Assembly: GCA_964561915.1 (NCBI GenBank)
Contig: CAZLQR010000005.1
Coordinates: 49,263 to 113,262, forward strand
Source: an uncultured Gammaproteobacteria bacterium
Lineage (GTDB): Bacteria > Patescibacteriota > Microgenomatia > UBA1406 > GWC2-37-13
Reading direction: 5' to 3'
Length of the DNA stretch: 64,000 nt
The first letter of the stretch is position 1. Each line of letters starts with the position of its first letter. Made by a program: the position numbers and the translations under genes. Of this stretch, positions 30,046-32,986 are shown one piece after another. The notes beneath the pieces are model-generated. The model saw only the letters and a program-made list of their open reading frames with translations. It was not told the origin of the DNA and did no database searches.

Positions 30046-30504
30046 ATGGTTACCGTCTTCGTGGGAGCCGATCACCGGGGGTTCGAGTACAAGAATGAGA
30101 TCATCGAATACCTTCATGAAAAAGACATCCGGGTGGAAGACCTGGGAGCGTACGAGCTCAATCCAGATGATGATTTCCCTGATTTTGCATTCAAAGTGGC
30201 GCAGGCGGTGCAGCAAAATCCTGCGGAGTTCCTTGGCGTACTCATATGCGGAGGCGGCGGGATGGAGATCACGGCAAACAGACTCAAAAAAGTCCGGTGC
30301 GCGCTCGGATTCAATTCAGAACAGGTCAAGCATGTCAAAGAGAACGACCATGTAAATGTACTTGCTATACCGTCCGATTATATCGACATCGAAACGGCCA
30401 AACAGTTCGTCGATATCTTCATCGAGACTCCGCTGAAAAAAGAGGAAAAATATCTTCGCCGCGTCAAGAAGCACGACGAGGTCCCGTCCGAACCCATTTC
30501 TTGA
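30046..30504 (+). CDS. rpiB: Ribose-5-phosphate isomerase B (RpiB/LacAB family)
   Basis: VFVGADHRGFEYKNEII and VLICGGGGMEITANR motifs. Confidence 0.88.
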   Translation: MVTVFVGADHRGFEYKNEIIEYLHEKDIRVEDLGAYELNPDDDFPDFAFKVAQAVQQNPAEFLGVLICGGGGMEITANRLKKVRCALGFNSEQVKHVKENDHVNVLAIPSDYIDIETAKQFVDIFIETPLKKEEKYLRRVKKHDEVPSEPIS

Positions 30505-32986
30505 ACTCGTCTCCCTTCTCCTCGAAGTTTTTCCAGATACTGTGGCTGGGCGAAGCCGTTGATAGCAAACAAACCGCGCCTTTTGAAGTGTTCTGATATG
30601 CGAATGCGACTGCATCTTCCATCCGCGACGTGTCAAGGAAGCGGATGTGCGGCGGCCGGGATCGGAAGATCCGGCCGCCGCTCGTGGGGAACAGCACGAC
30701 ATTCTGGATTCTTGATGTCAGGATAGCTTGCTCCAGGGCGGTAAAGTCGTACCCTCTGTCTTTACCGCCCAGGAAAATCGTCTCAGTGTCCGGAAGCGCC
30801 CGAAGCGCTGCAATCGTCGATTCGGGCGTTGTCGAGATCGCATCGTCATAAAATCTAATTCCCTGGTATTCCCCCACAAACTCCAGCCTGTGCGGTAGAG
30901 GTCTGAATGTCGTGACGGACTGTCTGATGATATCGTCTGTGATACCCAACAGGCGCGCCGCAGCGGTGGCGGCGCGCACGTTATCCTCGTTATGTACACC
31001 TAAGAGCGGCAGCTTCAGTCCGGTCAAAATATCCGCATCCGCAAACGGGATGCGCTTCGCGGCCGCGGTGCGGATATGGTCTGCGACACGCGGGGAATCA
31101 TTGTTATACACAAGCATGTCGGACGGACGCTGATACCGGAACAACGATTCCTTAGCCGCATAATACTGATCCACACTTCCGTGGTAATCCATGTGTTCGG
31201 GGTACAGATTGAGGAAAACGGCAATCCGCGGCGAATACGCCAGATCTTCCAGCTGATAGCTGGATAGCTCTATGACAAAAAGAGCCTCGTCATCGTAAGG
31301 CTCCAGGAGCGCGCCGAGCATCGGCGCGCCGATATTCCCTACGAGCCGCACGTCTTTCCCTGCCGATTCCAGGATATGAGCAATGAGCGCCGCAGTCGTA
31401 CTCTTCCCTTTCGTACCGGTGATGCCGATCGTCATATTTTTCTCAACGGCGGCGAAGAACAAATTTGATGCGGTCGTATATTGAATATGGACGTTGCGCT
31501 TCGGGATTCCGGGTGTCTTGAGGGCAATATCATATGAGTCCTGGACGGCGAGATATGCATCTCCTTCCGTCTGGTCCGACACGCCAAGGGGTAAATCCGG
31601 TTTCGTCTGTTTGAGGAATTTCTCCGTCACTTTCCCTTCCGTACCATACCCGAGTACGAGCGCATTCTTCATGCCGGAGAAAACGAACTCGGAAGGAATC
31701 AGACGGGAAATATGTGTATTCCGGATTTCCTTGAGTGCTTCCGGATTGATTGTCTCATGCTTTGACAACGCGCTTACGACGGCGCTGCCGGCCCAGCGGG
31801 GTGCGGCGGCGGCGAATGCCGCCGCCGCCTCATCAAACGTACCGACACAGTCAAACGGTTTCATCTCTCCAAGGCCAAGCACGTCCCGGAAAACCGGCAC
31901 GAGAGCCGGGTCATCGAACATATCGGTCCCGAAAATGGCGGTTACCTTATCTCTGGGCAGATGTGTCGCCAGCATGAGGAACATGAACGCGCATTTGGCG
32001 CACCTGCAGCACCACCTGCGCTGATCCGTCCCCTTCTCAACCGTGAAATTCCTGTTACAGCTGGAGAAAACGGGGAAATATTGTTCATACCGGGCAAACA
32101 GTTCCGATATCCGGTATTCATAAAACGGCCGGAGCAATGAGAAATACCGAATGTCCGTGGTGATGAATGACCGGAGATAATCCGCAAGGAGCCCCTCGAA
32201 TTCCTGCGACTTGCTCCACTGGTGGTTGACAGTCATTCCCCGGTACTCAACATTGCCGAAGTTACTGCTGTACTCGTTGCCGACGATGACCGACCGGAAA
32301 CCGTACAATGCTGCAGCCGCAATACCGAGAAATGCAAAGATGCCGGATGCGGGGACGTGCCCGTTGAATGACTCGGGTAACTTCTCGAGAAGCTGCGGAT
32401 CAAGCTCTCTGACAATCCGGAGATGATTGAGTCCCGACACATCAACGACATCATCGATGACCGCCGGACTCAACTTCTGGTATTGTATATAAAATGTGGA
32501 CGGCGTATAGCCGACTTCCCTGATGAGTTCGCACACGACCGCAGAATCCTTACCGCCCCCCAACCCGATCAGTACCGAATCGTGGGGAACATCGGCTTCG
32601 AGAGGTTTGACTTCCAGGTCAGATGACGGGAACTCCGCGACTATCTCCGGATCGAGATTGTTGCGGTACAGGAACTCTCCCAAACCATTCCTATAGACCG
32701 TGTTCCAAAACACCGCTTGCTCATGATTGAGCTTGTATGGAAGCTCCAGATGAGGAGGACAATACGTTTTGTAGTAGCTGATCCCGAGCATGAGATGGAC
32801 GTTCTGGAAAATACGGTCAAGAAGAGGTTTTGATACATTTCTTTGTACATTCTGCTGAGGGAATCGCACCGTTTCGGTGAAGGAGATCTGATCCGCATCA
32901 TCGAACGTTACGGCATACGTCAACGATAATTCCGAAGAAGTCGTATTGAACGTATATGAAGTAAACTCAAACGACTGAGCTTTCAT
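30464..32986 (-). CDS. murD: Fusion protein: N-terminal PP-loop (GGGKDS) + Cys-cluster domain, C-terminal MurD-type UDP-MurNAc-L-Ala:Glu ligase
   Basis: - C-terminal half matches MurD end to end (VLGYGTEGK.., GITGTKGKSTT, ELSSYQLE, LNLYPEHMDYH, GVHNEDN, PHRLEF, DDAISTTPEST, LGGKDRGYDF).
- N-terminal ~400 aa carry LIGLGGGKDSAV and CNRN..WCCRCAKCAF. Confidence 0.75.
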   Translation of the reverse strand: MKAQSFEFTSYTFNTTSSELSLTYAVTFDDADQISFTETVRFPQQNVQRNVSKPLLDRIFQNVHLMLGISYYKTYCPPHLELPYKLNHEQAVFWNTVYRNGLGEFLYRNNLDPEIVAEFPSSDLEVKPLEADVPHDSVLIGLGGGKDSAVVCELIREVGYTPSTFYIQYQKLSPAVIDDVVDVSGLNHLRIVRELDPQLLEKLPESFNGHVPASGIFAFLGIAAAALYGFRSVIVGNEYSSNFGNVEYRGMTVNHQWSKSQEFEGLLADYLRSFITTDIRYFSLLRPFYEYRISELFARYEQYFPVFSSCNRNFTVEKGTDQRRWCCRCAKCAFMFLMLATHLPRDKVTAIFGTDMFDDPALVPVFRDVLGLGEMKPFDCVGTFDEAAAAFAAAAPRWAGSAVVSALSKHETINPEALKEIRNTHISRLIPSEFVFSGMKNALVLGYGTEGKVTEKFLKQTKPDLPLGVSDQTEGDAYLAVQDSYDIALKTPGIPKRNVHIQYTTASNLFFAAVEKNMTIGITGTKGKSTTAALIAHILESAGKDVRLVGNIGAPMLGALLEPYDDEALFVIELSSYQLEDLAYSPRIAVFLNLYPEHMDYHGSVDQYYAAKESLFRYQRPSDMLVYNNDSPRVADHIRTAAAKRIPFADADILTGLKLPLLGVHNEDNVRAATAAARLLGITDDIIRQSVTTFRPLPHRLEFVGEYQGIRFYDDAISTTPESTIAALRALPDTETIFLGGKDRGYDFTALEQAILTSRIQNVVLFPTSGGRIFRSRPPHIRFLDTSRMEDAVAFAYQNTSKGAVCLLSTASPSHSIWKNFEEKGDEFKKWVRTGPRRAS

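Follow-up and report, generated by a model that had tools for sequence, protein, structure and literature searches.

The 64,000-nucleotide stretch of Patescibacteria DNA analysed here (the window; contig CAZLQR010000005.1 of assembly GCA_964561915.1, positions 49,263 to 113,262) carries on its minus strand one unbroken open reading frame (ORF) of 840 codons plus stop, at 30464..32986. Judging from its sequence, this fused murL-murD2 gene very probably encodes a bifunctional MurL-MurD2 enzyme, which would perform the two steps by which an alternative route installs residue two in the stem peptide of peptidoglycan. In Xanthomonas, the MurD2 ligase of this route adds L-Glu, which the ATP-dependent epimerase MurL then flips to D-Glu (PMC8788868, PMC5808125). 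Hence an organism with this route needs neither a glutamate racemase (MurI) nor free D-Glu. The first-pass annotation of the window pointed to the Xanthomonas pathway, and its proposal that the gene fuses a MurL-like epimerase to a MurD2-type ligase is borne out by a match to the MurL family model, the specificity residues of MurD2, the PP-loop fold of the N-terminal half, and the detection of neither murI nor a second murD in the genome. The pathway itself is known; its fused form and its wide spread in Patescibacteria were absent from the papers searched.

Evidence for the epimerase comes from the first 425 amino acids (aa) of the protein (31712..32986; this and all other window features given with coordinates lie on the minus strand), a slightly longer domain than the roughly 400 aa allotted to it in the first-pass annotation. 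Searched with hidden Markov models, aa 3-409 match the NCBIfam MurL model NF041275 over positions 7-410 of 447 (E 1.7e-95), and no other PP-loop family in NCBIfam scored for aa 1-430. The two family-model matches of the protein, at E 1.7e-95 and 1.1e-76, are similarities far above chance. The MurL half is also 35% identical over 386 aa (E 6e-68) to the annotated murL product of X. sacchari, the reference used here, which is 451 aa long and scores 836 bits on NF041275. The window's domain scores 320 bits on this model, far under its Xanthomonadales-specific equivalog cut-off of 700, and is therefore a distant member of the family, as the 35% identity also indicates. In a precomputed annotation of a large protein collection, the N-terminal halves of homologues bear PF26298 and PF26299; the local Pfam copy, which lacks these two families, matched only Mur_ligase_M and Mur_ligase_C, and nothing in aa 1-430.

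The motifs of Xanthomonas MurL are retained in this half. Both motifs picked out previously are where they were described: the ATP alpha-phosphate/pyrophosphate-binding PP-loop GLGGGKDS at aa 141-148 (32543..32566), and WCCRCAKCAF at aa 325-334 (31985..32014). The latter contributes to a four-Cys cluster, C310...C326-x2-C329-x2-C332 (SSCNRN ... WCCRCAKC; 31991..32059), which resembles the Zn site of QueC and which we presume to be a probable Zn site here too. Two further elements are NHQWSK (aa 254-259; 32210..32227), an invariant candidate active-site element, and FDCVGT (aa 378-383; 31838..31855), in which the conserved C380 is a candidate general base for proton exchange at C-alpha. The motifs GGGKDS, NGH-P, NHQWSK, FSSCNRNF, WC-x2-C-x-KC and KPF(D/E)CVG are common to this domain and X. 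sacchari MurL, and are kept in both 120 fused homologues and around 100 stand-alone ones. Within the PP-loop, G144, G145, D147 and S148 are invariant across the fused set, with X. sacchari MurL reading AIGGGKDS; the four cluster cysteines are invariant in both alignments and conserved in X. sacchari MurL; and C380 is invariant in the fused proteins and conserved in at least 90% of the stand-alone ones, its X. sacchari equivalent lying in KPFECVGE.

The predicted structure is that of a QueC-like PP-loop ATP pyrophosphatase. An AlphaFold2 (AF2) model of the whole protein, built with the 120 fused homologues, reached a pLDDT of 93 and a pTM of 0.91. When this model was submitted to Foldseek, the top 50 matches were all Mur ligases, so the MurL half was modelled separately (pLDDT 92.5). 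Its best PDB fold matches were Cap9, QatC, QueC, carbapenam/beta-lactam synthetase, TtuA, MnmA, argininosuccinate synthetase and LarE, at E-values from 1e-5 to 1e-2, all of them PP-loop adenylating enzymes. No relative of this half was found by sequence in the PDB, and the PDB copy searched yielded no solved MurL structure. Such an adenylating fold agrees with the stoichiometry reported for MurL, which turns ATP into AMP (PMC8788868), and the model supports the published hypothesis that inversion by MurL follows adenylation of the Glu alpha-carboxylate. Identity as QueC or a WbpG-type amidotransferase was considered and rejected, as only MurL matched in NCBIfam and QueC is merely a remote structural relative.

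It is conceivable that the MurL half is instead a decayed, structural or regulatory remnant attached to a ligase that alone is active, as its modest score on the Xanthomonas model (320 of 700 bits) might imply. However, the PP-loop, NHQWSK, the four cysteines and C380 are invariant in 120 fused homologues that are only around 50% identical overall, a sign of purifying selection on the active site; furthermore, the MurL fold is modelled confidently, and no other source of D-Glu was found in the genome. A remnant is therefore very improbable, and a functional epimerase domain remains the preferred interpretation.

The C-terminal half is a complete MurD-type ligase. The first-pass annotation was right about this identity, and overestimated its length, which is around 400 aa (438-840; 30467..31675) rather than 440. 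The region spanning aa 479-833 matches the murD model TIGR01087 at 258.8 bits, against a cut-off of 211.95; Pfam Mur_ligase_M matches this half at E 3e-26; the best PDB sequence match is the MurD structure 3LK7 (E 8e-52), to which the modelled ligase also aligns in Foldseek (E 7e-30), with TMt reaching 0.77 among MurD structures. The ligase is complete, with all three Mur-ligase domains, because its N-terminal domain begins at aa 438, with GMKNALVLGYG. An alignment shows that the catalytic residues are intact, the equivalents of K115, N138, E157, H183 and K198 being conserved, the first of these, which is invariant, lying within the ATP P-loop GTKGKST (aa 524-530; 31397..31417). The ligase half is 32% identical (E 7e-38) to X. 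sacchari MurD2, a 478-aa protein annotated as "murD".

It is the specificity residues that point to a ligase of the MurD2 type. Positions D182, K348, A414 and L416 of E. coli MurD correspond to E197, R358, P433 and F435 of X. oryzae (Xoo) MurD2; the E197D/R358K double mutant of the latter becomes a D-Glu ligase, whereas P433A and F435L leave specificity unaltered, and E. coli MurD with K319T accepts L-Glu (PMC8788868). The E. coli numbering was confirmed on b0088, and the X. sacchari equivalents (E206, I340, R367, P443 and F445) are shifted by +9 or +10 from those of Xoo. In a MAFFT alignment, these sites read E-I-R-P-H in the window's protein, E-I-R-P-F in X. sacchari MurD2, and D-K-K-A-L in E. 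coli MurD, such that the published E, R and P replace the canonical D, K and A. Specifically, E597 (in YPEHMD; 31196..31198) is the equivalent of E. coli D182 and Xoo E197, and R744 (in GGKDRGYDF; 30755..30757) that of K348 and R358, these two being the L-Glu specificity switch; I717 (in DDAISTT; 30836..30838) takes the place of K319, as does the Ile of DSISTT in X. sacchari MurD2; and P813-S-H815 (in STASPSHS; 30542..30550) corresponds to A414/L416 and P433/F435. No NCBIfam model tells MurD2 from MurD, and X. sacchari MurD2 itself exceeds the TIGR01087 cut-off at 298 bits. This inability to separate the two explains why such proteins are publicly named "D-glutamate ligase".

The genome is consistent with a cell that makes peptidoglycan by this route. 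It comprises 1.77 Mb in 42 contigs, and is 96.7% complete, with a contamination estimate of 1%; this is large for the phylum, and around twice the size of a same-genus relative (G183, ~0.8 Mb). Neither TIGR00067 nor PF01177 found a glutamate racemase in it, although control searches were positive in 10-11 reference genomes, and the fused gene is the only murD above cut-off. The other Mur ligases detected were MurC (349 bits), MurE (336 bits) and a MurF-like protein (182 bits), meaning a peptidoglycan precursor pathway exists.

The same association extends across the phylum. Relatives retrieved by name belong to the Patescibacteria/CPR (candidate phyla radiation): Uhr-, Moran-, Nomura-, Staskawicz-, Kaiser-, Roizman-, Woese- and Levybacteria, as well as Saccharimonas. 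In a sample of 301 species-level genomes of the phylum, MurL was present in 41, none of which had a real murI; the "murI" matches in five of them were weak and partial, and reflected other Asp/Glu racemase-like proteins. By comparison, murI was convincing in 115 of the 260 genomes without MurL, giving a Fisher p of 7.5e-10 for the mutual exclusion of the two genes, a value that overstates independence because the MurL-linked MurDs form approximately one clade. In nearly all MurL-positive genomes, murL is either fused to murD (around ten frames of 812-939 aa) or adjacent to it, mostly in the order murL then murD. Many murI genomes have murI beside murD (e.g. G230:C29:37745-40032, G215:C15:31544-33713 and G106:C2:164613-166683). 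That murI and murL occupy the same slot by murD suggests an in-place swap of solutions to the supply of D-Glu.

The MurD2 signature follows MurL in this sample. Among 134 extracted MurD sequences, 76 were MurL-linked and 58 came from genomes without MurL, the latter being split between 38 from murI genomes and 20 from genomes with neither gene. Using E. coli numbering, Arg at site 348 was found in 72 of the 76 MurL-linked sequences, including all 24 fused ones, and only one of the 58 others, while Pro at site 414 occurred in 60/76 and 0/58 respectively. Site 319 was I, L or F in 72/76 MurL-linked sequences, relative to only 9/38 from murI genomes, and Glu at site 182 was present in 56/76. Some MurDs in the survey sit in unusually long frames (G104:C20:8836-10110, 1341 aa; G254:C2:29594-30982, 657 aa; G127:C1:182199-183383, 638 aa; and G134:C3:26558-27889, 604 aa), which may represent other MurD fusions or N-terminal extensions.

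Phylogenetic analysis placed 75 of the 76 MurL-linked MurDs in one clade, nested among the MurDs of murI genomes (FastTree support 97), a result also obtained with IQ-TREE. Within it, 22 fused proteins, including that of the window, formed a clade with support of 99-100, and a further two fused proteins paired separately, which points to either fission or another fusion event. X. sacchari MurD2, the only proteobacterial MurD2 in the tree, also fell within the clade of 75 (SH-aLRT 94), where its branch is very long (1.79). A common origin of Xanthomonas MurD2 and the MurL-linked MurDs of Patescibacteria is likely, with the placement of a single long branch being only suggestive. A more speculative proposal, which we hold as tentative and rather doubtful, is that the MurL/MurD2 route serves a whole monophyletic section of the Patescibacteria (~14% of sampled species) as its standard means of obtaining D-Glu, and that this section was the pool from which the Xanthomonadales murL-murD2 pair was horizontally transferred.

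Several observations weigh against a MurL-MurD2 assignment, in addition to the low score of the MurL half. Firstly, the function of the whole clade is predicted from sequence and structural models. Secondly, as the MurL-linked MurDs are nearly one clade, the association between residues and MurL largely reflects one evolutionary event, and Fisher tests of this association do not amount to independent trials; the independent weight lies in agreement with residues which mutagenesis had defined in Xanthomonas. Thirdly, the signature is imperfect: the site of Xoo F435 is H815 in the window's protein, whereas 22 of 24 fused relatives have Tyr there; Glu at site 182, the least discriminating position, also occurs in 10 of the 38 MurDs from murI genomes; and four MurL-linked MurDs keep K348/A414 (L066 in G010, L081 in G134, L092 in G218 and L098 in G291). 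These four exceptions come from genomes without murI, in which murD precedes murL or the two genes are convergent. Fourthly, 87 of the 237 MurD-positive Patescibacteria (~37%) have neither murI nor murL, such that the absence of murI is by itself weak evidence in this phylum. The D-Glu of these genomes could come from an aminotransferase, host uptake or a divergent racemase, or the genes could be missing through gaps in metagenome-assembled genomes. Fifthly, the window's genome encodes two fold-type-IV aminotransferases, one of which is IlvE; the second, a 279-aa pyridoxal phosphate (PLP) enzyme (G000:C6:106398-107039; locus L059, 1399-2238; minus strand), scores equally on ilvE_I and D_amino_aminoT (131.6 bits on the latter), both far under cut-off, and its PDB matches are branched-chain aminotransferases and D-amino-acid transaminases (DAATs) alike. 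Its catalytic Lys and Glu are conserved, and the R98/H100 pair that forms the carboxylate trap of the Bacillus DAAT is absent. Of the D-Glu enzymes for which the first-pass annotation proposed a search, murI is missing, and this ambiguous enzyme may be a D-amino-acid transaminase.

One alternative is that the ligase is an ordinary MurD using D-Glu, supplied by the ambiguous class-IV aminotransferase or by a host, with the MurL-like half adenylating for another purpose, such as modification of a different carboxylate, salvage or proof-reading. The frequency of MurD-positive Patescibacteria with neither gene, and the naming of the ligase as murD by TIGR01087, are both compatible with this. However, TIGR01087 also passes the Xanthomonas MurD2, whereas the ligase itself has the experimentally-defined E and R switch, together with the P and I, that are found in X. 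sacchari MurD2. Furthermore, the 20 sampled MurDs from genomes with neither gene keep K348 (20/20) and A414 (19/20); the aminotransferase lacks the Bacillus trap; and across the phylum MurL is fused or adjacent to murD and excludes murI. An ordinary D-Glu ligase is consequently improbable, although less so than a decayed MurL half, and a bifunctional MurL-MurD2 enzyme is strongly favoured.

The fusion itself is not an accident of assembly. A frameshift or mis-assembly could in principle have joined adjacent genes for separate MurL and MurD2 proteins, given that around three-quarters of MurL-positive Patescibacteria keep the two as neighbouring genes, usually with murL ahead of murD. However, independent assemblies supply at least 120 database clusters, 811-885 aa in length, with the same architecture and the same junction, and the same-genus genome G183 carries a matching fused frame of 834 aa; the fused proteins form their own clade, as described above (22 rows); and the short ordered linker between the halves (aa 426-437; 31676..31711) is modelled with high confidence (pLDDT 84-94 in the whole-protein model). 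An artefact is thus the least credible of the alternatives, to the point of being extremely improbable, and the function would be the same whether the halves are fused or separate. A Met is kept at the point where a stand-alone MurD would start, both in the window's protein (GMKNALVLGYG; aa 438-448, 31643..31675) and in the consensus of 120 fused homologues, LGMKNVLILGYG; it may be what is left of the start codon of the ancestor.

The mechanism predicted for the fused enzyme would begin with the ligase (aa 438-840), which, by homology and its specificity residues, would add L-Glu rather than D-Glu onto UDP-MurNAc-L-Ala, converting ATP to ADP and Pi via an acyl-phosphate. The MurL domain (aa 1-425) would then adenylate the alpha-carboxylate of the terminal L-Glu, converting ATP to AMP and making the C-alpha proton acidic, as its fold and its homology to the assayed Xanthomonas enzyme suggest. 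A conserved base would subsequently flip the centre, for which C380, H210 and the NHQWSK motif are candidate catalytic residues. The MurE and MurF-like ligases of the genome would carry the pathway on from this product. Fusion would fix the two activities at a 1:1 ratio, and a direct hand-over of the L-Glu intermediate between the sites is a guess.

The remaining features of the locus are its neighbours. The RNase HI-like gene upstream ends in a stop codon that overlaps the ATG of the fused gene (ATGA), and rpiB, which is convergent, shares 41 nucleotides (nt) with the 3' end of the fused gene. Genes for DprA and Fmt are close by; this is not a dcw cluster.

These findings bear on the naming of existing sequences. 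Fused proteins are mostly labelled "D-glutamate ligase" by NCBI, and occasionally epimerase by JGI, yet many "UDP-MurNAc-L-Ala--D-glutamate ligase" entries are probably fusions of an L-Glu ligase and an epimerase, and the R348/P414 signature offers annotation pipelines a simple rule for distinguishing MurD2 from MurD. The route would account for D-Glu in peptidoglycan without a glutamate racemase in the window's genome, and in around one in seven sampled Patescibacteria. A natural fusion also provides independent "Rosetta-stone" support for the partnership of MurL and MurD2, and would let MurL be studied within a single chain, both for its structure and for its mechanism, which is called unclear in reviews (PMC8788868, PMC5808125). 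The route was earlier proposed as a narrow-spectrum antibiotic target, and its real distribution is much wider than was stated.

The reviews of the route confine MurL/MurD2 to relatively few genera, belonging to some of the Gamma- and Alphaproteobacteria and to rare actinobacteria; they note low-similarity matches in cyanobacteria, a fungus and an amoeba, and mention no fusion (PMC8788868, PMC5808125). Hence the host of the window, a member of the Patescibacteria/CPR, lies outside this distribution. A literature search, from which most subscription journals were excluded, found no paper tying MurL/MurD2 to CPR/Patescibacteria, or describing the fusion. MurL homologues with ~32% identity, annotated as hypothetical, were also seen on Pseudonocardia plasmids (NZ_CP010991.1, NZ_CP052772.1 and NZ_CP011869.1). 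In X. sacchari R1, murL and murD2 are found with a fused aspartate kinase/diaminopimelate decarboxylase gene on a 508-kb "plasmid" (NZ_CP010410.1; L139, 228431-237561) that resembles a chromid or part of the chromosome given the wrong label, and NCBI names this MurD2 a D-glutamate ligase.

The closest known system is that of Xanthomonas, which has in common with the window's genome the same enzyme families, the PP-loop, four-Cys and NHQWSK motifs, the E, I, R and P of the ligase, and the lack of murI; X. oryzae additionally has no D-amino-acid aminotransferase. Even the gene order is the same, as X. sacchari murL is followed by murD2, with the ORFs overlapping by 20 nt. By contrast, the window's enzyme is one 840-aa polypeptide, with 32-35% identity to its counterparts, lacks the ~35 C-terminal residues of Xanthomonas MurL (the model match ending at 410 of 447), and has His where Xanthomonas MurD2 has F435 and the fused family Tyr. 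Canonical MurD enzymes (E. coli b0088, 1UAG/2UAG; S. agalactiae 3LK7) resemble the ligase in their three-domain fold and equivalents of K115, H183 and K198, but differ in having D182, K319, K348, A414 and L416 in place of E, I, R, P and H, and in that the window's ligase has no MurI partner and instead carries an N-terminally fused MurL domain. QueC-like enzymes (B. subtilis QueC, 3BL5; Cap9 of CBASS, 9NTO; QatC, 9Y02) have the PP-loop, the C...CxxCxxC cluster and carboxylate adenylation in common with the MurL half, although these matches are weak (E ~1e-4 to 1e-5, 14-20% identity), MurL differs from them in an additional beta/alpha module at its N-terminus (aa 1-110) and a helical one at its C-terminus, and its outcome is epimerisation, rather than amidation or conjugation.

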